DNA from: a virus
Taxonomy: Duplodnaviria; Caudoviricetes
DNA length: 46,305 bases
Reading direction: 5' to 3' (one strand)
IMG/VR virus record: IMGVR_UViG_3300020045_000926
Coordinates: 1 to 46,305 of that record
Part shown: positions 9,508 through 41,924 of the stretch, in pieces
Numbering within the stretch: position 1 is the first letter of the stretch
Layout of the letters: every line of letters begins with the position of its first letter
Translations under genes and position numbers: made by a program
The notes under the pieces: generated by a model
Database searches by the model: none
What the model was told of the DNA's origin: nothing
What the model saw: the letters and a program-made list of their open reading frames with translations, nothing else

Positions 9508-9784
9508 CTATATCCTTTATAAAGTCTTTAACCATTTCTAAGTCCCAAGCAACTAGTGAATATCCTCCACTGTCCTTAATAAGTTCTAAGTTATACTTTT
9601 GGAGTTCAGATACATTATTCTTAGTTTCAGGAGTCTTAACCTCTACGCCTATAAAAATACCTTTATAGCATACTATAATATCAGGTATACCAGCCTTAGT
9701 GGCTGATACTACCTTTACTGTATAGCAATCTATTGACTTTAAGTATTTTAAAATTTTACTTTGTACATTAGATTCTTTACCCAT
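9497..9784 (-). CDS. VRR-NUC / PD-(D/E)xK nuclease (Holliday junction resolvase-like)
   Basis: E..VQ, GIPD, EVK and SELQ motifs; next to the SF2 helicase. Confidence 0.85.
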   Translation of the reverse strand: MGKESNVQSKILKYLKSIDCYTVKVVSATKAGIPDIIVCYKGIFIGVEVKTPETKNNVSELQKYNLELIKDSGGYSLVAWDLEMVKDFIKDIDGS

Positions 9785-11958
9785 TAAATTTCACATTTAC
9801 CACCAGCACAAGCCTGGGCACCCATTGTATCTATATCTACATATTTAGGTTTAGTTAACCTATACTCTAATACTGGTATTGTATCACTCTTAGATGATAT
9901 TTTCCACCACTTATGTAAGTTATATACATCCTTAAGACAATTAGTACATTCTTCTAGTGATTTAAAATTACTAGAGAATTTCTCTACTCGTCTAACAAAA
10001 TCTCTCTTTAGTAAATGGTCATGTGAATCTGTAAGCTTTTCTCCATATCCTAATACTGTATTACAAGCTGCCCATAAGTCATTATTAAATGAACTAAGTC
10101 CAACTTCTATTAGTGCAGAAGTGAATAGAGCTACAATTCCATATTTACTAACAATCTCTTCCTCAGTAAGTATTTCAGTAAAAGGAGCTTGTGGATATGC
10201 TTTATCTCCATTAGCTGCTAATAATGATACACCACATAAATCTTTTCTATTATTATAAATATACCTAGTTACATCATACCAATCATCTACTGTTATAGTA
10301 TTTGATACATTATGTGATAACTTAGGATGGCTACATAATTCTACTGTTTTACCAGCTGCTATCCAAGATTGTTGTACTGTTCTAACATACTCTAATTGTT
10401 TAACACCTAATAGATTACTCTTAGTAATAGAACCCTTTTTAGTAGTTATAGGATATGCAATAACTATATCCCTTTCTCTATTCCATACTGAGTCTTGACA
10501 CATTTCTGGTAACTCTTCTTGGAATAACTTAGCCATTTCACTATCTTTACTCATTTGCATATGCCTAATGTATCTAGTACTATGCTCTCCGTGTATTCCT
10601 GATGCTGTTCCTAATAGTACACTAGCATTTCCACTAGGTTTTACAACTGTAGTTCTAGCTGCAGGATTAATCTCAATTAAACTAGCAGTAACTCTATTCC
10701 ATTTCTTAACTACTTCAGCACCTCTTTTTAGTATATCAGTATCAAATAATATTTTAGGGTTATTCATAAATCCAGTAATACCTACACCTATTAGTGCTTC
10801 TTTATCTACTATTTGTTTTGATACATCTGAAAGATATTTAAAGTCTGTATACCCAGCTTGTAAAGTACACATAATTGATGCCCATTTACATTGCTCTAAG
10901 AATATCTCTTCGCTATCTGATAGTGAGCCATTTATCTCAGTTAAGTTACATACTTGGAATCCTGTTCTACCATCAGGAAGTCTTGGGTACATTCCAACTT
11001 CTACACAAGGATTTAGTGTAAATTCTAAATCATCAACCCAAATAAATCCTGGTTCTCCAGAGTGTTGAACAGATTCCATAATACTATTAAATTCTTCAAA
11101 AGTAGTACTATTTCTTAGTAACATAACTGAGTTATTACTTCTACCTCTTTGAGGATTAGTTAAGTACCAATCTCCAGTTTTAGCTTTAATCATATCTTCA
11201 TCATCTTTAGAGAACATACAAATAGTAGCACTTCTTCTTACACCACCAGAGATAACTGCATCAGCTATGTACATCATTATATCATATGCAACTATTGTTC
11301 TTATATCCAGTATACCGTTAGCTAGTTCATCATCTAATAAAGAACTAATAGTATTTATACAAAGCCTTAATGGCTCAGGTCCTGGTGCTTTAAATCCTCC
11401 GCTAATAAAACTACCTTTAGCCCTTATTTTAGTATAATTAAATAATATGGTTTTTCCAGAATTTTCATTACCTTCTGTATAAGACTCCATAAGAATCTTA
11501 ATGGCATCAGACCATCCTTCTATACTATCCTCTATATCAAACTTAATAGTTTCAGAGTTTTTAACTACTAATTTAGGTAACTTAGCTATATGATGTTTTT
11601 GTACACTGAATCCTACTCCAGCTCCACATAATAACATATACATAGTTTCTGAGAATACTTCAATTCTATCACAATAAGTAGATGCACAATTATATAATCT
11701 AGCGTGATGTTTTAGTAGTTGTTCACCACCAAACTGTAGAGCTCTTTGGGCTCCTAAGAATAATTTGTTTTTATATGCTGTACTTACACCATCCATTAAC
11801 CTAGTTAGTTGTATACTCATTTTATCTTTATAAAACTCTTTATGCATAGCCATAACTCTATCTACAGCCTCTTCAAAAGTTTCGTACCTACCTAACTTAT
11901 CGTTATACCTAGAGTAATCACTAAGAAACTTAGTATCACTCATTAATTGTTTAAACAT
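9784..11958 (-). CDS. nrdJ: Ribonucleotide reductase, probably monomeric class II (AdoCbl-dependent)
   Basis: YNC, GGVRRSA, NPCVE (thiyl Cys), CNLTE, KPSGNAS and C-terminal CAGGKCEI; IEDSIEGW segment resembles RTPR; no beta-subunit gene seen. Confidence 0.85.
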   Translation of the reverse strand: MFKQLMSDTKFLSDYSRYNDKLGRYETFEEAVDRVMAMHKEFYKDKMSIQLTRLMDGVSTAYKNKLFLGAQRALQFGGEQLLKHHARLYNCASTYCDRIEVFSETMYMLLCGAGVGFSVQKHHIAKLPKLVVKNSETIKFDIEDSIEGWSDAIKILMESYTEGNENSGKTILFNYTKIRAKGSFISGGFKAPGPEPLRLCINTISSLLDDELANGILDIRTIVAYDIMMYIADAVISGGVRRSATICMFSKDDEDMIKAKTGDWYLTNPQRGRSNNSVMLLRNSTTFEEFNSIMESVQHSGEPGFIWVDDLEFTLNPCVEVGMYPRLPDGRTGFQVCNLTEINGSLSDSEEIFLEQCKWASIMCTLQAGYTDFKYLSDVSKQIVDKEALIGVGITGFMNNPKILFDTDILKRGAEVVKKWNRVTASLIEINPAARTTVVKPSGNASVLLGTASGIHGEHSTRYIRHMQMSKDSEMAKLFQEELPEMCQDSVWNRERDIVIAYPITTKKGSITKSNLLGVKQLEYVRTVQQSWIAAGKTVELCSHPKLSHNVSNTITVDDWYDVTRYIYNNRKDLCGVSLLAANGDKAYPQAPFTEILTEEEIVSKYGIVALFTSALIEVGLSSFNNDLWAACNTVLGYGEKLTDSHDHLLKRDFVRRVEKFSSNFKSLEECTNCLKDVYNLHKWWKISSKSDTIPVLEYRLTKPKYVDIDTMGAQACAGGKCEI

Positions 11959-12820: not shown

Positions 12821-13333
12821 TTATTGTTGTTCTAATACTTTTCTTTCAGTTTCTAAATCTCTATTTATAGCAGCTTCATTTGTATATTTATCTGGATATC
12901 TAGTTTTTAATTTGTTTATGTTTCTAATTTGTTCAGCCTCTAAAGTAGTACCTAGTACAGCACAAGCAATTGCTTGGTACCATTGCATATCTCCTAGTTC
13001 TTCTGCTAAATTAACTTTATCTAACTCTTGATTTAGTAATATAGAATTTACTACAGGTGTTAAGAACTCTTCTGCTTCAGTTAGCATACCTAATCCAGAG
13101 TGTAATAATCTAATCTTCTCAACTGATATATTTAACTCTAAAGATAATCTATTAGTATCTAAAGTACTAGATTCTCTTCCATAAAATACATATTTTTTAA
13201 GATTATCAATATCTTGGTTAATTACAGCTAATACTAGTTGTAAACCTTCAATTGAGTGTATTACTTTACCTAATCTTTCATTAGCTCCTTCAATACTCTC
13301 AGTTCTTATTGCGTCTTGTATATAGTTATTCAT
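12821..13333 (-). CDS. MazG-like nucleotide pyrophosphohydrolase
   Basis: G..TEAEE...EELGD..WY...NI.KL..RYP motif. Confidence 0.8.
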   Translation of the reverse strand: MNNYIQDAIRTESIEGANERLGKVIHSIEGLQLVLAVINQDIDNLKKYVFYGRESSTLDTNRLSLELNISVEKIRLLHSGLGMLTEAEEFLTPVVNSILLNQELDKVNLAEELGDMQWYQAIACAVLGTTLEAEQIRNINKLKTRYPDKYTNEAAINRDLETERKVLEQQ

Positions 13334-14471: not shown

Positions 14472-14984
14472 TTATTTTTTAGGTCTTAAAGAGTTCTTAA
14501 GTTCACCACGTAATACTTCTTCTCGTTTTATAGAGTCCAAATATACTTTTTCCATATACCCAGTGTTACCTAATTTAATCTCATTCCTACTATAAGTAGC
14601 ACATTGTATAATATCTGCCAGTGTAACTATAATAGACTCTACTTCTTTATGTTCTATATAGCTAGAAATAAACTCTTGAATAAAACTAGGGAATTTAGAC
14701 TTTACTATCAGTCTTTCAGCTACTTTAAGAGCCTTAGCTACTGCAGGATAATCTTTCTTAATCTTATGGTTTACATCATCAATATAAGCCTCAGGTAAGT
14801 CGTGGCATAATGACATGTGTATTGCCTTATTTAAGTCAAATTCATATTCCTCAAATAACTTATATACTTCTAAGGCTACAAAGAAAGAATGAGCAGCTAC
14901 TGACTCATTCTTAACTCTTGGTATATTAGAGTATCTAACTATATAATCTAAACTATATAGTTCTTCCATATTTAATTTACTCAT
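14472..14984 (-). CDS. HD-domain 5'-deoxynucleotidase (YfbR/DatZ-like)
   Basis: R.S...R...ESVAAHS, HDLPE...DD and LAD motifs. Confidence 0.85.
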   Translation of the reverse strand: MSKLNMEELYSLDYIVRYSNIPRVKNESVAAHSFFVALEVYKLFEEYEFDLNKAIHMSLCHDLPEAYIDDVNHKIKKDYPAVAKALKVAERLIVKSKFPSFIQEFISSYIEHKEVESIIVTLADIIQCATYSRNEIKLGNTGYMEKVYLDSIKREEVLRGELKNSLRPKK

Positions 14985-15381
14985 AATCTTTTATCTCCTC
15001 TGGAAGTACTCCATCTAATAAATAATTCATTAGTTCTTTTAAATCTTTACATATAATACCGCTTTTACCTAACATAAGATTAGGCTTAGTGATTCCTTTT
15101 GTGTAATAAACTATTGGTATGTTTTTAGCATATGCATATCCACACTCCCATATAGTTCCCATATCTTTACCAGCTGTTGAGGCTATAACTAGTGAACTAC
15201 TATTTAAGTGTTTTATATTCTCACTAAATATATCATCCCAATTACACCCATCTTCTCCTAGGTTCATATGCCTAGGCATAAAAGAGGTACTATCCATAAG
15301 TTTAACACAATACTCAACATCCTCTAAAGAGTCTATTTGCTCAGGAGTAAACCATCCTCCTGCTACATATACTTTACCCAT
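14977..15381 (-). CDS. Nucleoside 2'-deoxyribosyltransferase family protein
   Basis: VYVAGGWF, D.GT.WE.GYA (catalytic Glu) and NLM motifs. Confidence 0.88.
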   Translation of the reverse strand: MGKVYVAGGWFTPEQIDSLEDVEYCVKLMDSTSFMPRHMNLGEDGCNWDDIFSENIKHLNSSSLVIASTAGKDMGTIWECGYAYAKNIPIVYYTKGITKPNLMLGKSGIICKDLKELMNYLLDGVLPEEIKDYE

Positions 15382-16249
15382 TTGTTTTCTCTCTTATAGT
15401 ATTTCTTATATTAGTATATACTTGACTACCTATAAATGACTCTCTAGTCTTACTATATACAAATTCAGTATTGGTTAGGTCTACTTCTTTAGAATCTAAA
15501 TACTCTTGGTTAATTGTTTTAGGTCTATAAATATTACTAGAATGAGAACCATTTATAGTATTACAATACCATAAATCTACTCCACCTATTTGTATTGTAC
15601 CTCTAATAAATGGATATACTTCACAAATAGATTCATACATCCTAAGAGCTATAATATTATCTGATTCTGGTTGTATTTGTTCATCTATTCTAGTTTTAAT
15701 AAACTGTAATATATCTTTAATATTTCCAGACACATAATAGAAACTAGATAAACTTCTAGGTAATATAGTTCTAGCATCTAGTATAGATATTACTCCACTA
15801 TCTATCATATCAGAATATAAGTTTTTAGCTAACTTAACTATAGTTTCATATCTATCATTGAAACACTCTACTTCTTTTATAGAAGGTTTAACAACACAAT
15901 CATCATTTCTCATATCCCTATCAGCTGTACATTGAGCACTAAGGCTTAATGTTCTATGTCTAATTAAATGAGTAACATCAATTAGGTCCATTCCACTTAT
16001 TCTAAATGTTAATCTAATAGTTTCAAAAGCTGTTGGAAGTAAAGTACCTTTAAATAAGTCCAATAGAGCTTTACTTCTTTCTTCATCAGTATAGTCCCCT
16101 GGTATATCTTCCCAAGTAGCTAGACAAAATTCTGGTATATATTGTTTTAGTTTATCTGTACTAGGGTAGTCTAATAACTCTACTTTAATATTACTAAGTT
16201 GTTCTTTAAACTCAGTAGTAGGTGCCTGATTAGTTTTAAGTAATTTCAT
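15374..16249 (-). CDS. Divergent ThyX-fold flavoprotein (motif Ser replaced by Cys); probably not a thymidylate synthase
   Basis: E.I.LTF.ISG, HLIRHRTLSLSAQCTAD, DARTILP and F...R motifs; RHR-X7-C instead of RHR-X7-S. Confidence 0.8.
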   Translation of the reverse strand: MKLLKTNQAPTTEFKEQLSNIKVELLDYPSTDKLKQYIPEFCLATWEDIPGDYTDEERSKALLDLFKGTLLPTAFETIRLTFRISGMDLIDVTHLIRHRTLSLSAQCTADRDMRNDDCVVKPSIKEVECFNDRYETIVKLAKNLYSDMIDSGVISILDARTILPRSLSSFYYVSGNIKDILQFIKTRIDEQIQPESDNIIALRMYESICEVYPFIRGTIQIGGVDLWYCNTINGSHSSNIYRPKTINQEYLDSKEVDLTNTEFVYSKTRESFIGSQVYTNIRNTIREKTNG

Positions 16250-16563
16250 TTATTAGCTCCTTTATACTTTATCATAAAATCATTTATATTAGTTAAGTCT
16301 TTATACATATCTTCTGTAAGCTTAGCATATCCTTGTATATCGTGCCAAGTATCTATATGGTCTGGTGTTGCACCTAATCTAACTAATTTCATTACTAAGT
16401 AATAAATAGGTAAGAACTCTAACTCAGTTGGTTCTCTTCCTGTTTTATCCCTATGTATATCTTTTAGATTCTCTATAATTCCTGCAAATCCCTTAGTACC
16501 TACTTCAAACCTACCATAAGTTTGACCTCTTTCTTCTAGTGTATTATCTATATTATTACTCAT
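16246..16563 (-). CDS. DUF6378-like protein (possible all-alpha NTP pyrophosphohydrolase)
   Basis: TL.ERG..YG.F ... K..R ... H.D.W.DI.GYA pattern. Confidence 0.7.
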   Translation of the reverse strand: MSNNIDNTLEERGQTYGRFEVGTKGFAGIIENLKDIHRDKTGREPTELEFLPIYYLVMKLVRLGATPDHIDTWHDIQGYAKLTEDMYKDLTNINDFMIKYKGANK

Positions 16564-17452
16564 TATCTTGTCTCCATAATTTTACTTTAATTTGATTGCT
16601 TTCATCCATAACTAATTGGTGCATATTAACTAATCTCATATTTTTAATAGCATCAATATCATCTCTACCTTTATTTCTATATTCTTGGGTTACTTTATCC
16701 CATAGAATCTTTCTATCAACTATTGAACCTAGCATTTTCTCAGCTGTCTTTTTACCTACACCTTTTAAACCTATTACATTATCTCCTGTATCACCAGTAA
16801 GTGTTTGTATATAATGATGTTGTATTGCCTCTTTCTCACTAACATCATAGAACTTCATTTTTATATTAAACTTAGTACTAGAGTAATAATTAAAGTGAGT
16901 ACCAGGTACTGAATATAATACATCTTTATCTACAGCACACATAATATATTTATCATACCATTGAGTTTTCTTAAACACTACAATATCATCAGCCTCCCAC
17001 TCTCTCCAAGAGAATGCTTTATCAGGATATCTAATACATAATAACTCTTTTAGTTCACTTAATCCTACTGGAGCCCTAGTACCATTATTTAGTCTATTAG
17101 CTTTATATTCAGGGTCTACTAATGTATACCTAAATGATTCTCTACCCTTAGTAAAGTGTAGTTCAAAGTCTTGGCATCCTGTATTATCCATAATAGTTTT
17201 AATAGTATCCATAGCATGCTTAAAAGCTTCTTCAATATCTATAGTCCATACTTCTTCAAACTTAACTTCTCCTACTCCAACATCTTCTTCTGACATTCTT
17301 TCGTGTACTACACAAGCAGCAAAAGCTATAGTATCAGCATCTATTAGTGCAATCTTATCATTTTTAGGTGGTAATACATCACCTCTTGAGTTTATTTGTA
17401 TATCTGAAACTTCTTCTTGAGTTCCAAAGTCTAATTCAAATTCTTTAGCCAT
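16556..17452 (-). CDS. 5'-3' exonuclease (T7 gp6/FEN-like)
   Basis: LIDAD, YKANR, EADD, DKD and GD..DN..G..GVG.KTA motifs. Confidence 0.9.
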   Translation of the reverse strand: MAKEFELDFGTQEEVSDIQINSRGDVLPPKNDKIALIDADTIAFAACVVHERMSEEDVGVGEVKFEEVWTIDIEEAFKHAMDTIKTIMDNTGCQDFELHFTKGRESFRYTLVDPEYKANRLNNGTRAPVGLSELKELLCIRYPDKAFSWREWEADDIVVFKKTQWYDKYIMCAVDKDVLYSVPGTHFNYYSSTKFNIKMKFYDVSEKEAIQHHYIQTLTGDTGDNVIGLKGVGKKTAEKMLGSIVDRKILWDKVTQEYRNKGRDDIDAIKNMRLVNMHQLVMDESNQIKVKLWRQDNE

Positions 17453-17461
17453 TTTATATCC

Positions 17462-19198
17462 TTATTCATCTACCGGCATTGGTATATCCTTAAATTTAAA
17501 AAGTTTAGACTTACTAATCTCAGTCCATCCCTTAACCATAGCTTTAGCAAGTCTTGACTGCCATAACTCTTTATCTTCTTTAAGAACTCTCAAGTATATA
17601 GCATCGTGAACAACATTAAAGATTAATTTAAGTGCCTCAGGATATTCTTTAATTAAGAAGTGAACTGCCAACTTAGTAGTTTCAGCACCAGAACCTTGAA
17701 CAGGCCCATTAATACCATCTGTACCTAATTTAGGTTTAACTTTCCTACCTAATGCTGTTTCATAAAAGAAACTAGGTTTACTATAGTTATTCCATACATA
17801 CTCGTGATATTTCTTAATACCAGGATATTTAGTGAAGTATTTATTTCTTAGTGCTGTAGACTCTTCTAAAGATACTTTAACACCATAACTTACGAATGCA
17901 TAGTTTTGATAGGTCTTAGCAGACATCCCAAATACATAACCAAAGTTAATTGACTTAGCTAGAGTTCTATCTGTCTTAGTAACAAACTTAGTACCTTTAT
18001 TAGATGAATCGTGAATAGTATCATAATCACTACCTAATAATCCATCAGGATGAAGCTCTTTACCAGTAGAAGATATGGCCATAGAAGTATGTAAATCTTC
18101 TCCCTCTTTTAACTGTCTATACATTTCAGGCTCATTAAATATTGCACAAGCTAGTCTTAATTCTAGTGTAGAATAATCTAAACCTACTACTGTTGTAGTA
18201 TCTGTATCAGCTTTAAATAAAGGTTGAAATCTTCTAGGTATTTGTTGTGCATTAAATCCATTAGGTATATCTCCACCACTAGAGGTAAATCTTCCAGTAG
18301 CTGCACCAGCAACATTAAACTTAGTATACATTTTATCATAATTAATTGATTCTAAATAAGACTTCTCTTTTATAGCTCTTTTAAGTTCTGTCAAGGCTGC
18401 TGCTTTACCTGCTAATGGTTTATCTGATAAAGAATAAATTACTAGAGCATCGTGGTCAGATTCTTCAACACCTAAGTATTCTCTAACTTGTTTATAACTA
18501 TTAGGATTAAATCCTACTGGGAACTCTAATCTTAATCTAGCAATATCTTTTATACATTTCTCTAATAGAATTTCTCTTTTAGGTAAATCTACTAATAGTC
18601 CATTTTGTTGATATTGTATAGCATATATTTGAGATAACATATCAACTTTATAAGCTAGATTATTCTCAATAACATCTTGTATCTTAGGGTCTGCCCACAT
18701 TAAACTAAGTGCATATACATCTGTTGCAGAATATTGTATTTGTGCTTGAGATAAATATGCTCCCTTTTTAAATCCAGCTTTTTGTAATGATTTTTTATCT
18801 AAACTTTTATAAAGATGCCCAAACCCTAGTTTATCTACAACTTTATCTAAGTTGAACTCTATAAAGTGGCAATAAGCAGTTTTAATGGCATAAAATAAAT
18901 CATCTACTTTTGCAGTAATGAAATTTAGGGTACCTAAGTCGTATGATGAATTATACCAAACAGTGTGAAAATCAGATAAGTAAGTTGTAACTTGGTTTAA
19001 GATATTATCATAATCTTTTTGAGAGTAACCTAATGGTGCAACATCAAAAATATAAATAGTATCATCGGTAGTAGGTTGGTAGAATTGTATTAATCTAGTA
19101 CCAACATATAATTGTTCTGTTTCAATATCGCAGAACGTAGGTTCAATAGTAGAGAGTTTTGGTAACTCTTCAATTTTAGTAATTATTTTAACTTTCAT
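17462..19198 (-). CDS. polA: Family A DNA polymerase with 3'-5' exonuclease domain (start re-called at 19198)
   Basis: DIET exo I, TGRFTS, DYSTLELR motif A, R..AKSINFG motif B, VHD motif C; AAGGAA RBS before the ATG at 19198. Confidence 0.93.
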   Translation of the reverse strand: MKVKIITKIEELPKLSTIEPTFCDIETEQLYVGTRLIQFYQPTTDDTIYIFDVAPLGYSQKDYDNILNQVTTYLSDFHTVWYNSSYDLGTLNFITAKVDDLFYAIKTAYCHFIEFNLDKVVDKLGFGHLYKSLDKKSLQKAGFKKGAYLSQAQIQYSATDVYALSLMWADPKIQDVIENNLAYKVDMLSQIYAIQYQQNGLLVDLPKREILLEKCIKDIARLRLEFPVGFNPNSYKQVREYLGVEESDHDALVIYSLSDKPLAGKAAALTELKRAIKEKSYLESINYDKMYTKFNVAGAATGRFTSSGGDIPNGFNAQQIPRRFQPLFKADTDTTTVVGLDYSTLELRLACAIFNEPEMYRQLKEGEDLHTSMAISSTGKELHPDGLLGSDYDTIHDSSNKGTKFVTKTDRTLAKSINFGYVFGMSAKTYQNYAFVSYGVKVSLEESTALRNKYFTKYPGIKKYHEYVWNNYSKPSFFYETALGRKVKPKLGTDGINGPVQGSGAETTKLAVHFLIKEYPEALKLIFNVVHDAIYLRVLKEDKELWQSRLAKAMVKGWTEISKSKLFKFKDIPMPVDE

Positions 19199-19242
19199 TT
19201 TATTCCTTGTTTTGTAGGCTATCAACTGCCTTAATATGTTAA

Positions 19243-22336: not shown

Positions 22337-22858
22337 TCATATATTTTTAATTGTTTCTTTAAGCTCAACTGAGTCTTTAATTAGTGTAGTAAGATATACT
22401 ACTTCATCAAATGACTTACTTTCTTCTAATGACACCCTTAGTAGTTTAGTTAGCTTTACTTGATACTTAGTTATAGAATCTACTACATCCTTTATAGCTA
22501 ATTCTCTGTCAGTTTCACAAGGTTCACTAGAACTATTCTGAGTAGTATCATCAACTGGTAAACACTCACAACTTGTAGGCTCTTCAACTGGTAAACACTC
22601 ATCACAACTTGTAGGTTCTTCTCCAACTAATAAATTCATATCAGAATCACAAGTTGGGAGTTCTACAGCATCTAATACTAAATTCATATCAGAATCACTA
22701 ACCTTGTCCTGGTAGTAACCCTCCTTAGTAAATGTATACTCCTCACCATTATATAGCCTTATAGTAATGATTGAGTATATTCTACTTTCATTAATCTCAA
22801 TTATCCTAAACTCTGTACCATCTCTATTAGTAACTACATCTCCAACTTTTAAATTCAT
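22337..22858 (-). CDS. Hypothetical protein with internal Cys/acidic repeats
   Basis: DSDMNL x2 and EEPTSC(D)ECLPV x2. Confidence 0.65.
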   Translation of the reverse strand: MNLKVGDVVTNRDGTEFRIIEINESRIYSIITIRLYNGEEYTFTKEGYYQDKVSDSDMNLVLDAVELPTCDSDMNLLVGEEPTSCDECLPVEEPTSCECLPVDDTTQNSSSEPCETDRELAIKDVVDSITKYQVKLTKLLRVSLEESKSFDEVVYLTTLIKDSVELKETIKNI

Positions 22859-23529
22859 TTCACACTTCCTATAAATAATTGTTTGTCTAATTCTGGTAAA
22901 GCTTCAAACATAGCTTTTGCTAATAGTTGAATCTCCCACAACGCTTTCTTATCTGTCCTTAAACTTAAGAAGTTTTGTAAACTTCTAGCATTTATTGTCA
23001 TAACTAAAGATGTCTTATATGCCTCAGGCATACAGTATTTAGCTTTATCATTAGGAGCACCCTGTCTTACAAGTTCTCCAGTTAGTACATTTTTTAGTCT
23101 TTGTAAAGCAAAAAGTGAGCTTATGTCAGTTTCTCTATCTCCTGTAAAGACAATATACTTTTTAGCTCTTACAGAATCAAAGGTACATAAAGAGCCCATA
23201 AAATAAGTAAAGTACTCATCTTTTGGTTGTTCCTGACTTAAAAAACTAGGCTCCTGTTTTGACTCTTGTAAAGTATATCTAGTACTTTTAACTGTATAAC
23301 TAGCTATTCTGTGTCTTGCAACTTCTTGTAGACAGGCTCTACTAATACCATCAATATCAAAGTTATAAACTAAGTGCTCAATAACACTCTCATGTTTAAG
23401 TTGATTAGATACATTATCTATTCTACTTAATCTTTTTTCATCTGTTGTATGTGGTGTATTTGAATAACACTTACATATAGCTATATCTGCAACACTCAGT
23501 GGTGTGCTACTTAATAATTTAACTTGCAT
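22855..23529 (-). CDS. thyX: Flavin-dependent thymidylate synthase (canonical); start re-called at 23529
   Basis: HESVIEH, RHRIASYTVKSTRY (RHR-X7-S), N.RSL.NF..LR....A.WEI; GGAGGA RBS. Confidence 0.92.
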   Translation of the reverse strand: MQVKLLSSTPLSVADIAICKCYSNTPHTTDEKRLSRIDNVSNQLKHESVIEHLVYNFDIDGISRACLQEVARHRIASYTVKSTRYTLQESKQEPSFLSQEQPKDEYFTYFMGSLCTFDSVRAKKYIVFTGDRETDISSLFALQRLKNVLTGELVRQGAPNDKAKYCMPEAYKTSLVMTINARSLQNFLSLRTDKKALWEIQLLAKAMFEALPELDKQLFIGSVK

Positions 23530-23530
23530 C

Positions 23531-23830
23531 TTAATCCTCCGATAAAATTTGTTCTGCTTCTTCTCTAGTAGGAGTCTTCTTGTATTCCCACCACTCTGCA
23601 CCATCATATTCTCCTCTTTCTAACCAAGAAGAATCCTTAAATACTACTATACCAAATAACTCTTGTCTTCCATACCCATTTCCATATCTAGTAGCTAACC
23701 TATCTAATTTAGATATGTCATTAACTTCTATACTATTTAGTTTAATAGCTAAGTAGTCTATGTCATCTAATGTTTTATTAATCTTGGTTAAAACTATTAA
23801 TAATTCTTCTTCTGCAAGTATATATCCCAT
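23531..23830 (-). CDS. Conserved-looking phage hypothetical protein (start re-called at 23830)
   Basis: Y.NGYG.QE.FG...FKD.SWLER.EYDGAEWW pattern; GGAAGG RBS. Confidence 0.65.
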   Translation of the reverse strand: MGYILAEEELLIVLTKINKTLDDIDYLAIKLNSIEVNDISKLDRLATRYGNGYGRQELFGIVVFKDSSWLERGEYDGAEWWEYKKTPTREEAEQILSED

Positions 23831-24313: not shown

Positions 24314-24844
24314 TTAGCTCAACTGCAACTTCATAATCCATTCTGGAACCTCTCTTTTTGTATATTTTAGTAAGTCTTTCTTATAGGTAGCATAATATGC
24401 TCTATAAGGTCCGACAGCATCTTCTTCTGTACTAATAAGTTCTTCAGGAATAGCCTGTGCGAATGGTTGCAAGTCTATATCTGGTAACATATTAATTATC
24501 TTTTTGTGGTCTAAGTTCTTAAATACTACATATGATTTATGTTCATCAGTAGTAGTTAAGCTATCGTAATCTTCAATACTACAGTTATGGTTAAACCTAT
24601 ATTTCCATTCTTCATGTAACTCTTCAATTAGTTCACATAACCACATATAATTATGTTTACTCTTTCTTACCCATAATGAGCAAGGATGATTAGCGTGTGT
24701 AGTTTTATATGGTGTATCTAATCCATATAAGTTATGTGTTGTACATATCATCTGTACTGACTCTAGTATCATCTTTACTACGTGTTTGTCACAATGGTAT
24801 TGTGCACAAGTCTTAGGGTTATAATCCAAAACAAATATATTCAT
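24314..24844 (-). CDS. Pyrimidine-dimer DNA glycosylase (T4 endonuclease V-like) family protein
   Basis: MNIF.LD..P..CA..HCDKHVVKMILES.Q, H.NHPC..W.R.S and YR.YY motifs. Confidence 0.75.
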   Translation of the reverse strand: MNIFVLDYNPKTCAQYHCDKHVVKMILESVQMICTTHNLYGLDTPYKTTHANHPCSLWVRKSKHNYMWLCELIEELHEEWKYRFNHNCSIEDYDSLTTTDEHKSYVVFKNLDHKKIINMLPDIDLQPFAQAIPEELISTEEDAVGPYRAYYATYKKDLLKYTKREVPEWIMKLQLS

Positions 24845-27881: not shown

Positions 27882-28049
27882 TTAAATTCCATCAGGTGCC
27901 TTAGGAACTTTATAGATTTTAATTAAAGTATTATTCTTTAGTGAAGTTTTGATATACTCCTCTATATTTGTAATTGGTTCTAGTATATGAGTCATATATA
28001 CATTATATTGTTCATTATAATAGATTATATCTTCTTGTAATTTAGCCAT
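27882..28049 (-). CDS. Hypothetical 55-aa protein (MAKLQEDIIYYNEQ...), not in ORF track
   Basis: AAGGAG RBS; start overlaps the upstream stop. Confidence 0.55.
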   Translation of the reverse strand: MAKLQEDIIYYNEQYNVYMTHILEPITNIEEYIKTSLKNNTLIKIYKVPKAPDGI

Positions 28050-28692
28050 TTGTTATCTCCTTTAAAGATTGTACATAATTTATAGCTGCAATATACTCCT
28101 TTTGTTGCAGTGTATTACCTTTATCCTTTAAATGTACTGATAGTTCTTTTGTAGTTCCTACAAAACACCCAATTACCCATATATCTTCTATAAATATATA
28201 AGTATAATATCTATTACTAGTATGTACATTTTTAAGTACTATATAGTCACTAGATTTTTGTATACTTCCTTTAGGAACCCTAGCATTATAGGAAACCCGA
28301 GCATTACCAGAAACCTCAGCATCACCAGAAACCTCAGCATCACCAGAAACCTCAGCATTACCATAAACCTTAGCATTATCGGAAACCCGAGCATTACCAT
28401 AAACCTTAGCATTACCGGAAACCCAAGCATCACCAGAAACCTCAGCATTACCATAAACCTTAGCATTACCATAAACCTTAGCATTACCATAAACCTTAGC
28501 ATTACCGGAAACCCAAGCATCACCAGAAACCTCAGCATTACCATAAACCCAAGCATTACCATACTGTGACAGGTTATCCTCTTTCTCTATATACCCACCT
28601 AATTCTCCTTTACTAATATTACCAAAAGATTTTAGTGCTCTTATTTGGTATAGATTAGTATCCTTATTATAATTAAGTAATTCATATTTCAT
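28042..28692 (-). CDS. Hexapeptide-repeat beta-helix protein (start re-called at 28692)
   Basis: GGAGGA RBS; LY.IRA...FG....GELGG.IE N-domain followed by 16 (Y/S)(G/D/Y)(N/D)A.V repeats. Confidence 0.8.
   Translation of the reverse strand: MKYELLNYNKDTNLYQIRALKSFGNISKGELGGYIEKEDNLSQYGNAWVYGNAEVSGDAWVSGNAKVYGNAKVYGNAKVYGNAEVSGDAWVSGNAKVYGNARVSDNAKVYGNAEVSGDAEVSGDAEVSGNARVSYNARVPKGSIQKSSDYIVLKNVHTSNRYYTYIFIEDIWVIGCFVGTTKELSVHLKDKGNTLQQKEYIAAINYVQSLKEITNG
28276..28563. repeat. 16 x 18-bp coding tandem repeat
   Basis: Units such as AACCTTAGCATTACCATA and AACCTCAGCATCACCAGA. Confidence 0.95.
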
Positions 28693-29023
28693 TTGTAGTA
28701 TCCTCCGAGTCTTGAATAGATAAGTTATTAGAATCCATCGAGTTATTAGACTCCATAGAATCCTTCGGACTATCTGCAAATAATATAAAGTCATCATCAT
28801 TAAAACAAGTTATTAGATTTATCTTATTATATAGTGCTATAATATCCTTTATCTCTAGTGATATGTTATATCTCTTTCTGTTGATTACTCTATACGAAAC
28901 TAAATAATTACTATCTTGTGAATATAGTGGACTAATACTAAATATAGTATTTTGAGTGAATCCGTTAGTTTCTATGTTAAATTGTTCATAGTCCTTAGGG
29001 TTAGAAGTTAGTGTTATTATCAT
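28682..29023 (-). CDS. Hypothetical protein with acidic tail
   Basis: AAGGA RBS; overlaps the next gene's start. Confidence 0.6.
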   Translation of the reverse strand: MIITLTSNPKDYEQFNIETNGFTQNTIFSISPLYSQDSNYLVSYRVINRKRYNISLEIKDIIALYNKINLITCFNDDDFILFADSPKDSMESNNSMDSNNLSIQDSEDTTNEI

Positions 29024-39473: not shown

Positions 39474-41522
39474 ATGGCAGTAGAAACAAAAGAAATAAAA
39501 GAGAGTGATTTAGATAAGTTAGCAGCTATAACAGTAGAAGCTACAGAAATTAATGATGTTGTAGATAATTTAAAAGATTTAACAAGTAGTGCTAGTCAGA
39601 TTGATGGTTCAACAATATGGGTAAATTCTGCTACTGCTTTTGGTGTAGTTGCGGATGGAGTAACGAATGACACTATAGCATTGCAAAGTGCAATTGATTA
39701 TGCTTTTGATAATAAAATAGGTACAGTAAGACTGCCATCTGGTAAAATGTTAATATCTGAAATAATATTAAGGAGTGGAGTAAGTTTAATTGGAGTTAGA
39801 CCAAAATTAACTTTTATACAAAACTGCCCTGATTTAGGATTCACAATGGATAGTGGTTCTGTTTTTGTACCAATTGATGCAAATTCTAAGGGGATAGTCG
39901 GGAATAATATAGACAGCATAGGTGTTGATAGCGGAATCAAGGCACTGTCTAATATTGTTCTAAAAGATTTCGGATTAAAAGGGTTTAAATATCCAATTAA
40001 AATAGGTGCTAAAAACCAACTGGGTATGGGTATGGGAGGATTTGATGGTATTATTATAGATGGCACAAATGAAAATAATGTTCAGGTAACAGAAATAGGT
40101 ATGACTTTATATAATATACAGCAGACAGTAAACGCAGGTATTTATATGTTTAATGTAAGAAATGGTGTAAAAATATATAATGATAAAGACCTACCCGTTT
40201 GTTCAAGTGGGAATAGCATATTTTCGAAAACTTATATATTTCTTGATTCAAATACACGAAGTGAGTACACATCATCTATATCTTCAATAAGTTTAGGTAC
40301 AACAACGTCTATCACACTAAGTACAGCACATAATTTAGAAACAGGAGATATTATTCAAATAAATAATGCTACATCCACAGATGCAAGTATAATTAATAAT
40401 ATTTTTTCTGTCTACTCAGTAGTAGATGCTAATACAATAATACTAAATATAAATACGACAGGGAAAAGTATAAATATATCAACTGCAATTTTGGAAAAAG
40501 GACGGGCAGGGATTCATCTTATATCTAGAGGAACACAAGATTTAAACCATATCACTTTCTACTCGCCTCAGGTAAACTGTTTTACCTCAACAAGTCCAAA
40601 TAAAGGTATATGTAATTTTGCTGCTTGTGGTACATCTAGTGTAATAACGGGGACTACTTTCAATGAGATGGATATAGAAGGGGCTACGGATTCACATCTA
40701 TTTATTGAAAGAGCATCTTCTTGTACTTTTAATATAGCAATAGATTCCATCACACCACCTTTGGGGACAATAAATATAAAACAATCAACAAATTTGTCTA
40801 TTATATCGAACGACCAAGATATCACATTAAATATAGCACATAAATCTGCACAAGGAGGTATAGGAGCAATTAATGTACTTGGTAGAATTGCAGGGTACAC
40901 CACTAATTCAATTAAAGCTAAATATGGACACTATGTAGATGTAAATAATGCAAAAACTTATTTCGGAGGAACTAATAATTTACAAAGCTTAGTAATAGAC
41001 CATTCTACACCCTCAATCGGTGTTGACAATGTTACTGGTACTTGGTTTGCATTAAGATTATTTTCTAAAAATCCTGCGTCAAAAATAAGCGGTAGTTTTA
41101 CAATTGGTATAGATAGAGTCGGGTTGCATGAGTGTATAAATTCAAGTAACATAACGATTACGTTACCCTTTAGTGGTGCAGATTATGGACAAGCTAAAGT
41201 AGGGAGTCCTGTGTTAATAAGTAAACTATCAGGTATTGGAAACATTACGATAACAGCAGCCAGCGGACAGACATTAGGCGGTTCTAGTAGTTCTATCATA
41301 TTACCAGCGAATATTGGTGCATCTATATTTCTTATTTCAACTGGTGAGGGAGATTGGGTGGTTGTATCTCAAAATAATAATGGAAGTTTACTCTCATCTG
41401 GAAATACAGCAAGTAGGCCAACAACAACAGAAATAGGATTTAAATATTTTGACACATCTCTTAATAAGCCTATTTGGAGAGCCTCAAGCGGTTGGGTTGA
41501 CTCATTAGGAGTTAGTGTTTAA
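39474..41522 (+). CDS. Tailspike / beta-helix receptor-binding protein (pectate lyase 3-like start)
   Basis: FGVVADGVTNDTIALQSAID...LPSG motif; C-terminal G.T..RP....G..YFDT.L.KPIW....WVD..G module. Confidence 0.85.
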   Translation: MAVETKEIKESDLDKLAAITVEATEINDVVDNLKDLTSSASQIDGSTIWVNSATAFGVVADGVTNDTIALQSAIDYAFDNKIGTVRLPSGKMLISEIILRSGVSLIGVRPKLTFIQNCPDLGFTMDSGSVFVPIDANSKGIVGNNIDSIGVDSGIKALSNIVLKDFGLKGFKYPIKIGAKNQLGMGMGGFDGIIIDGTNENNVQVTEIGMTLYNIQQTVNAGIYMFNVRNGVKIYNDKDLPVCSSGNSIFSKTYIFLDSNTRSEYTSSISSISLGTTTSITLSTAHNLETGDIIQINNATSTDASIINNIFSVYSVVDANTIILNINTTGKSINISTAILEKGRAGIHLISRGTQDLNHITFYSPQVNCFTSTSPNKGICNFAACGTSSVITGTTFNEMDIEGATDSHLFIERASSCTFNIAIDSITPPLGTINIKQSTNLSIISNDQDITLNIAHKSAQGGIGAINVLGRIAGYTTNSIKAKYGHYVDVNNAKTYFGGTNNLQSLVIDHSTPSIGVDNVTGTWFALRLFSKNPASKISGSFTIGIDRVGLHECINSSNITITLPFSGADYGQAKVGSPVLISKLSGIGNITITAASGQTLGGSSSSIILPANIGASIFLISTGEGDWVVVSQNNNGSLLSSGNTASRPTTTEIGFKYFDTSLNKPIWRASSGWVDSLGVSV

Positions 41523-41924
41523 TACCTTTTAGATTTACGAGGACGCAATTATAGTTCTATAGACAAAGCAATAAGAATATGGATTAACTATCCATATTCT
41601 CACTGTGAAATATTTATAGGTAAAAATTGGTACAGTTCTAGTCCAAGAGATAATGGAGTTAGATTTAAACAAATAGAACCAGAGATTGGTAGTTGGGATT
41701 ATGTTGAAGTTGATATAGATATAAATAGACTTAATAAAGTTTATGAAGAGCATAAAAATCAAGGTTATGATTATTTAGGTATAGCTCTTTGTATGATACT
41801 ACCATTAGGTAGAGATAATAAAAAGAAAATGTTCTGTTCTGAATTTATAGCTATGGTTCTAGGATTAGATAAACCAGAAATGTATAGTCCTGATGATTTG
41901 TATGTTTACTTAAAAAGGAAATAA
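41523..41924 (+). pseudogene. Permuted papain-like (YiiX/YebB NlpC/P60) reading frame without a standard start codon
   Basis: 133 open codons: IDKAIRIW..YPYSHCEI...SSSPRD.GVR...YDYLG...FCSEF...SPDDL; first ATG (41793) lies after the His motif. Confidence 0.7.

Follow-up and report, generated by a model that had tools for sequence, protein, structure and literature searches.

A ThyX-fold paralogue beside a nucleoside 2-deoxyribosyltransferase in phages and phage-plasmids: a probable part of a pathway to a non-canonical DNA base

In the canonical dTMP synthase ThyX, H53 forms a stack with the folate, the attack on a flavin carbinolamine is assisted by S88, R90 and Y91, R78 stabilises FADH- and R174 activates N3 of the uracil, and free formaldehyde can stand in for folate, likewise by way of a flavin carbinolamine, as these enzymes are described in two reports (PMC8316439, PMC11940539). 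The pre-replicative pyrimidine modifications characterised so far in phages are the work of ThyA-fold enzymes, and a ThyX-fold one was not found in the open literature. SP-15 encodes two Thy1 proteins and makes its dihydroxypentyl-uracil before replication; the report on this phage proposes hydroxymethylation for gp130 and cites a 1978 title according to which ribose label enters the SP-15 chain (PMC5977210). The linker of Carin-5 has been given as T+88 and the core of YerA41 as 346 Da (PMC12686479), and a 5-hydroxymethyluracil route is assumed in the papers on SP-15-like phages (PMC5977210, PMC12686479, PMC13697223). In Z-genome phages, nucleoside 2-deoxyribosyltransferase-family (NDT) and HD proteins are described as generic enzymes that remodel the nucleotide pool (PMC12884076).

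The window, that is, the whole 46.3-kb stretch of DNA analysed here, is a virus record with portal, capsid and family A polymerase genes; a terminal repeat was not found in it. The genes of concern are these:

17462..19225, minus strand: family A DNA polymerase, first gene of the run (Pfam and PHROG)
16556..17452, minus strand: 5'-3' exonuclease, part of the run of overlapping genes
16246..16563, minus strand: DUF6378 protein, 105 aa (Pfam E 5.9e-6, slightly below the curated cut-off)
15374..16249, minus strand: ThyX-fold paralogue, 291 aa (Pfam Thy1 E 5.6e-19; motif RHR-X7-C-x-x-D-R)
14977..15381, minus strand: NDT-family protein, 134 aa (Pfam PF05014 E 3e-13)
14472..14984, minus strand: HD / YfbR-like 5'-deoxynucleotidase, 170 aa (Pfam YfbR-like E 1e-15)
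12821..13333, minus strand: MazG-like NTP pyrophosphatase (PHROG 229 E 2e-36)
22855..23526, minus strand: canonical ThyX (dTMP synthase), RHR-X7-S-x-R-Y (Pfam Thy1 E 5.4e-40)

Polymerase, exonuclease, DUF6378 protein, paralogue, NDT and HD protein follow one another in this order, with overlaps of 4-8 nt: the DUF6378 gene overlaps the start of the paralogue by 4 nt, the NDT gene overlaps the paralogue by 8 nt and the HD gene overlaps that of the NDT by 8 nt, and an AAGGAG ribosome site lies upstream of the paralogue. The HD protein also matches PHROG 7076, 'dATP triphosphohydrolase' (E 1.6e-19), and the MazG-like protein is a candidate source of dNMP substrate. The same types of enzyme, namely DatZ (HD), DmtZ (NDT family) and MazZ, are clustered with the base-making enzyme and the polymerase in Z-genome phages; PurA or PurZ had no match among the 45 window ORFs scanned. 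The ORF of the canonical ThyX spans 22855-23607 on the minus strand, with its start probably at 23526, and the closest relatives of this enzyme are mostly in Campylobacterota-labelled genomes (three of five loci), so the host of the window phage is probably a member of the Campylobacterota. Elsewhere, this small phage encodes a class II-type ribonucleotide reductase and a pyrimidine-dimer glycosylase-like protein (9784-11958 and 24314-24844, minus strand), as well as a beta-solenoid (YdcK-type) hexapeptide repeat protein (28042-28800, minus strand).

The original prediction held that the window contains a second ThyX with a remodelled active site and a long C-terminal extension, and both statements were borne out. 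The paralogue is a 291-aa minus-strand ORF, with the canonical copy elsewhere in the window; it has LPTAFET at residues 71-77 and RHRTLSLSAQCTAD at residues 97-110, and the canonical copy carries HESVIEH and RHRIASYTVKSTRY. BLASTP similarity between the two is not significant (E 0.62). The Thy1 match stops at residue 213, and the roughly 78 aa beyond it include invariant residues and are well predicted (block pLDDT 86-97, last block 69). On alignment to T. maritima ThyX, whose residue numbers were checked against the S88C, R90A and H53A entries, L71 falls on H53, C107 on S88, A109 on R90 and D110 on Y91, whereas R97, R160 and R187 correspond to R78, R147 and R174. H53, R74, R90 and Y91 are thus missing and S88 is a Cys, with R78/H79/R80, R147 and R174 present. 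The pattern extends to the 120 closest proteins, each of which retains R78, H79, R80, R147 and R174 but none of which has RHR-X7-S-x-R-Y: the H53 position is Leu in 119 and Val in one, R90 is replaced by Ala or Gly and Y91 by Asp, R74 by Thr, Cys or Ser, Q75 by His and E86 by Ala (118). The methylene-transfer residues have for the most part been exchanged for smaller ones (H53 for Leu, R90 for Ala or Gly, Y91 for Asp). L/V71, P72, H94, D110 and R111 are fixed in the same 120 relatives, which argues that the changes in the active site are not chance decay. Because residues of the folate site and of methylene transfer are lost and the flavin- and nucleotide-binding arginines are kept, we infer that the paralogue is not a folate methylene transferase, and it would be a flavoenzyme that still binds a nucleotide. 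The S88 position holds Cys in 104 and Gly in 16 of the 120 closest proteins and Cys in 39 of 59 representatives of the wider clusters, with Gly, Ser, Thr or Ala in many relatives; Cys at this site is favoured but dispensable in the family, which weakens the catalytic role proposed for it.

The family search returned 224 proteins at E<=0.001 among 735 candidates, so that the phage clade numbers at least 224 relatives, and 68 clusters at 50% identity scored E<=1e-30. The viral loci with a member number 67; of these, L067 and L068, the weakest two, were set aside as ordinary ThyX-like. In GTDB genome contigs, 34 pattern matches gave no confirmed member. The family is also present in an isolate, Geobacillus phage GR1 (41% identity), and in 41 Bacillus plasmid records including pBS32 (40.5%), and members of its clade occur in small podoviruses with PolA, in large phages with PolC and in phage-plasmids of Bacillus. 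All these proteins are annotated as plain thymidylate synthases; no study of this ThyX-fold clade was found in the open literature, and a description outside it is possible. The AlphaFold (AF2) model of the paralogue has a mean pLDDT of 92, and its top Foldseek matches are all ThyX or PolB proteins (TM 0.53-0.56, E about 3e-10, 15-23% identity). The comparison with ThyX and PolB suggested beforehand therefore returned the ThyX fold, and a PolB-like function was rejected, PolB ranking ninth and being no closer than M. tuberculosis ThyX. The paralogue shares with PolB and with T. maritima and M. tuberculosis ThyX the fold, the RHR flavin motif, R147 and R174, but differs from them in its N- and C-terminal arms, its NDT/HD context, its separate clade and the change of S88 to Cys or Gly. 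In a quick tree of 74 rows, the 21 family rows (clade A) form one group (SH-aLRT 99) that joins a wider clade B (99), apart from SP-15 gp130 and from the 17 canonical-type rows (96), so the paralogue does not nest among the canonical-type enzymes of this tree, none of which is a biochemically characterised ThyX. A further divergent ThyX type, clade C (L114, L133, L103, L151), lies beside the same NDT, with or without HD and kinase genes.

The main clue to the function of the paralogue is the NDT-HD-DUF6378 cassette in which it sits, and which the original prediction did not mention. Neighbourhoods were counted over the window and loci L001-L066, 67 loci that are not dereplicated and include several near-copies; an NDT is nearby in 61 of them, an HD nucleotidase in 57, a DUF6378 protein in 31 and a mini ThyA-fold protein in 16. 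Twenty-two of 69 loci contain a dNMP-kinase-like cluster, and subsets of loci have a dUTPase, a dCMP deaminase, an epimerase or glycosyltransferases. Gene order varies among loci, and the adjoining polymerase is of family A or C, or in clade-B loci also B. GR1 has an alpha-glucosyltransferase-like gene, and in the protein P0145 a GT2 domain is fused to the ThyX-fold enzyme. The association also holds from the other side: among the best 80 of 436 matches of an NDT-seeded search, a non-canonical ThyX-like gene lies no more than 7 kb away in 62 of 72 new loci, and HD is present in only 20 of the 72. Six family loci lack an NDT, two of them being cut close to the gene. Three loci with neither NDT nor HD (L028, L047, L065) have instead a protein with a FAD-binding-type start, often together with a sugar epimerase; this protein, which we take to be 'mutase-like', is also found in most of the 14 clade-B loci, where an NDT is present in only three. 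The clade-B cassette (L156-L169, L066) consists of dUTPase, kinase, FAD-binding-type protein, sugar epimerase, mini-ThyA and polymerase, often of family B. Such replacement of NDT and HD by a FAD-type protein and a sugar epimerase suggests a co-substrate derived from a sugar.

The dCMP hydroxymethylases and 5-hydroxy-dCMP synthases of T4, RB69 and DLP3 likewise modify C5 before replication by means of a thymidylate-synthase paralogue, and their systems include a dNMP kinase, a dCTPase-type enzyme and glycosyltransferases, but the fold of these enzymes is unrelated and their pathways have no NDT. A search of the window for the mini-ThyA of the 16 loci did not find it (best E 0.1). Mini-ThyA is a protein of about 150 aa, unrecognised by Pfam, with Cys, Arg-Ser, Asp at the 177 position and a C-terminal His:

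L001:15924-16376, L250:14495-14947, L032:15734-16654, L066:10905-11465: mini-ThyA, alone or fused to a dNMP kinase

In ThyA-fold enzymes, an Asp at the base-specifying position is reported as a signature of action on cytosine (PMC13326640), and mini-ThyA has such a cytosine-type Asp. The parts that bind folate seem to be missing from mini-ThyA, which could be a new enzyme of cytosine modification.

The NDT of the window has Y5, D73 and E79, with N55 at the Asp72 position, and its nearest solved relatives are nucleoside-level NDTs, hydrolases scoring lowest. Family NDTs keep Tyr, Asp92 and Glu98, and 30 of 31 have Asn at Asp72, a substitution that is common in bacterial NDTs too (19 of 27). Ordinary phage salvage NDTs, by contrast, keep Asp72 (8 of 8) and fall outside the moderately supported group (83/84) that joins the NDTs of the family to those of gp130-type loci and includes three bacterial kinase-NDT fusions. 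DmtZ, as described in the Z-genome literature, also has Asn at the Asp72 position (PMC12884076); it lacks the Asp92-type residue that the window NDT keeps. In a bacterial operon (L274-L276), a fusion of a sugar-kinase-like protein with an NDT of a related group is accompanied by QueC-like and nitroreductase-like genes, labels that were read from the sequences.

An NDT also accompanies gp130. SP-15 gp130 adjoins an NDT and an SDR (genes 127-130), and homologues of gp130 were found in Carin-5, YerA41 and six further phages, with an NDT in all five gp130-type genomes searched. SP-15, Carin-5 and YerA41, all of which have a measured pentyl-polyol thymine, each encode a gp130-type ThyX without the folate site and an NDT; NDT, HD and gp130-type genes are adjacent in GXN1 and Vibrio 1.031.O, and in L112 a gp130-type ThyX lies within NDT-HD-DUF6378 of the family's groups; the sharing is clear in GXN1 and L112. 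SP-15, whose 413-aa 'thymidylate synthetase' was listed in the viral fold search, and with it Carin-5 and YerA41 resemble the window in that a second ThyX-like gene without H53 is joined by an Asn72-type NDT and, within the genome, by an HD nucleotidase; SP-15 also retains a canonical synthase alongside. In other respects they differ from the window: gp130 is a tandem double domain that seems to keep R74, S88 and R90, which the window paralogue lacks; an SDR adjoins gp130 but not the paralogue; and SP-15-type phages have a polymerase of a different group and the opposite palindrome avoidance. A family HMM gave no match on the gp130 loci, and orthology of the paralogue to gp130 was rejected on an hhalign probability of 8%, against 87% for the canonical ThyX, and on their separate positions in the tree. 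The paralogue is not the sister of gp130, so the link to pentyl chemistry is one of context alone. Three further observations concern the genes themselves. YerA41 gp86 (L075:9380-9916) carries a mannosyltransferase annotation but belongs to the NDT family, and its gene lies some 2.3 kb from that of the gp130-type ThyX (compare L081, Carin-5). The NDT and gp130 of SP-15 (L071:38729-39679, 40669-41910) are internally duplicated, with active-site residues apparently split between the halves. Listeria phage LIS04 (L072:11505-12620) has a third divergent ThyX type at the gp130 position, adjoining a double NDT.

Taken with the residue changes, these neighbourhoods make it likely that the cassette produces a non-canonical DNA base. 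How it would do so is much less certain, and the route that we put forward, tentatively, is a folate-free flavin coupling, by the paralogue, of deoxyribose released by the NDT to C5 of a pyrimidine dNMP. MazG- or dUTPase-type enzymes would supply the dNMP, the HD nucleotidase would strip canonical dNTP or dNMP to the nucleoside, and the NDT with Asn for Asp72 would cleave this nucleoside to free 2-deoxyribose, an aldehyde. By analogy with ThyX acting on free formaldehyde, reduced FAD and the aldehyde would form an N5 carbinolamine; C5 of the base would attack it with loss of water, D110 possibly taking the acid role of Y91, and a hydride from FADH- would give the 5-(3,4,5-trihydroxypentyl) dNMP. 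Kinases and the adjoining phage polymerase could then insert the modified nucleotide into DNA, and in some phages the hydroxyls may be glycosylated. The computed masses are 346.138 for trihydroxypentyl-dU and T+88.05 for dihydroxypentyl-dU, and the 346-Da core of YerA41 matches a deoxyribose reductively coupled to C5 of dU. SP-15 and Carin-5, whose chain has one oxygen fewer, have a FabG-like SDR near gp130, whereas the SDRs of YerA41 lie elsewhere. A point against so bulky a base is that metagenomes readily yield assemblies of family phages, which is not so for YerA41 and Carin-5.

On the identity of the base, restriction-site avoidance is suggestive. The premise is that phages with a protected T should still avoid GC-only sites. 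Such palindromes are indeed avoided in SP-15 (2/61), YerA41 (2/9), Vibrio 1.031.O (14/39) and Va2 (7/16), though not clearly in Carin-5 (10/13), phiXF1 and L112; in the window they are not avoided (34/35), and 22 family genomes or stretches mostly show no GC-only avoidance (ratios 0.54-1.22), against a median ratio of about 0.54 in eight gp130-type phages (Mann-Whitney p 0.013). Compared with control ThyX phages, the large NDT-seeded phages differ (p 7e-5), but A1 loci (p 0.11) and clade B (p 0.25) do not. An SP-15-like bulky modified thymine is therefore made less likely in the window, although the test separates C neither from G nor from host effects. The window is depleted in GATC (5/119), CATG (33/125), GATATC (5/21), GGTACC (3/10) and TCTAGA (6/18), and two other family genomes (G003, G005) also strongly avoid GATC and CATG, which fits poorly with a bulky complete substitution and may be caused by host restriction systems. 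The palindrome pattern, the cytosine-type Asp of mini-ThyA and the alpha-glucosyltransferase-like gene of GR1 slightly favour cytosine as the target, whereas the invariant R174 points to uracil. Placement of the deoxyribose chain on cytosine, which would give 5-(3,4,5-trihydroxypentyl)cytosine, an undescribed base with a nucleoside of 345.15 Da, is rather unlikely, and placement on uracil slightly more so.

Several other explanations have to be set against deoxyribose coupling. The paralogue could be a folate-free flavin enzyme that adds a small group at C5 of dCMP; its simplest product would be 5-hydroxy-dCMP, made with O2, and another would come from the reduction of a hydroxymethyl to a methyl. 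HD and NDT would then only deplete the canonical nucleotide or recycle it, in the manner of DatZ and DmtZ in Z-genome phages. Homologues of thymidylate synthase are reported to hydroxylate dCMP with flavin and O2 (PMC13326640). The palindromes would suit a small modification of cytosine, one that stops GC-only cutters and leaves GATC, CATG and GTAC cutters unaffected; the DNA of these phages sequences easily, Cys and Asp near the base are the pair used by ThyA-fold dCMP enzymes, and mini-ThyA, kinase and alpha-glucosyltransferase-like genes are at hand. On the other hand, the Cys is absent from 16 of the 120 relatives, the NDT is the tightest partner here although pathways of the T4/RB69 type are not known to need one, and neither the swap with a gp130-type ThyX in L112 nor the alternation of NDT and sugar-type enzymes is explained; we consider this reading less likely than deoxyribose coupling, yet a serious competitor. 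A more distant one is that the nucleotide which the cassette produces or breaks down serves a purpose outside the genome, such as poisoning host replication or countering nucleotide-based defence. Its induction together with cell death in pBS32, as part of the SigN regulon (PMC6751061), and the avoidance of GATC and CATG in the window, which implies DNA that is not broadly protected, would agree with this, but the cassette adjoins a replicative polymerase in phages of families A, B and C, in company with dNMP kinases and DNA-type glycosyltransferases, and such a role is improbable.

The prediction that the paralogue is a nucleotide reductase or deaminase rather than a methylase stands in its negative half: with H53 and S88/R90/Y91 replaced throughout the clade and the flavin and nucleotide arginines kept, it is probably not a dUMP methylase. 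The positive half, a reductive deaminase working like GMP reductase through a Cys thioimidate, would be most useful in turning dGMP into dIMP for an inosine-substituted genome, HD serving as a dGTPase and the NDT exchanging guanine and hypoxanthine. The loss of folate residues with retention of those for flavin would suit it, as would the likeness of the cassette to the HD, NDT, MazG and kinase set of Z-genome phages (PMC12884076), and the absence of GC-only avoidance fits a changed G as well as a changed C. GMP reductase and Campylobacter inosine DNA share NAD(P)H-linked nucleotide chemistry and a Cys near the base with this proposal by analogy only, the fold being different, and no publication on a dGMP reductase was found in the open literature. 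Campylobacter phage genera are reported to replace guanine (PMC10273834), one phage per genus having been examined here; CP220 and NCTC12673 each have one canonical Thy1 match and no NDT, though a very divergent copy could be missed, and these pathways were rejected as the home of the family (0 of 2 genomes). This result and the replacement of the Cys by Gly, Ser, Thr or Ala in many relatives weaken the idea; moreover, inosine would offer the neighbouring and fused glycosyltransferases nothing to act on, R174 speaks for a pyrimidine substrate, as does the pyrimidine-type mini-ThyA, and the proposal is improbable. A divergent but ordinary dTMP synthase with a salvage set for neighbours is very improbable. 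Such is the annotation everywhere, the fold, R78, R147 and R174 are intact, and no other thymidylate synthase was seen in GR1 or in five of nine records at least 90% complete (G004-G007, G031). The S88C mutant of T. maritima ThyX, of which a structure has been solved, stays active. Yet H53, R74, R90 and Y91 are all lost, and a single S88A, R90A or Y91A change is reported to slow the ThyX reaction strongly (PMC8316439, PMC11940539). A second strong thymidylate synthase, moreover, is present in 8 of 39 other records searched (5 ThyX, 3 ThyA) as well as in the window, and the Asp72-type NDTs of phage salvage lie outside the NDT group found here.

The coupling of deoxyribose to a pyrimidine is thus retained as the leading, if tentative, reading, and it can be approached in a tractable organism. 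In pBS32, the phage-plasmid of the ancestral laboratory strain B. subtilis NCIB 3610, the paralogue (WP_013603328), NDT (WP_013603320), HD (WP_020846148), kinase and mini-ThyA (WP_013603329) adjoin the polymerase; zpcXYZ, zpdBCDEF and zpdG (DNA Pol III) are reported under SigN promoters with values of 309, 176 and 401 (PMC6751061), which we read as fold induction, and the order of the genes would make the enzyme zpdE and the NDT zpcX. The pBS32 cassette sits under this mitomycin-inducible regulon and is therefore directly testable in B. subtilis NCIB 3610, where, if the reading is true, a trihydroxypentyl base would be inducible. The cassette would then use one of the building blocks of DNA to make the side chain on a second, and C-C bond formation between nucleotide and sugar aldehyde, catalysed by a flavin enzyme, would be a new reaction. 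The same chemistry carried out on dUMP by gp130 would explain the linkers of SP-15, YerA41 and Carin-5, a 50-year-old question. Since members of the clade go by the plain name of thymidylate synthase, they may conceal an entire class of modified genomes.
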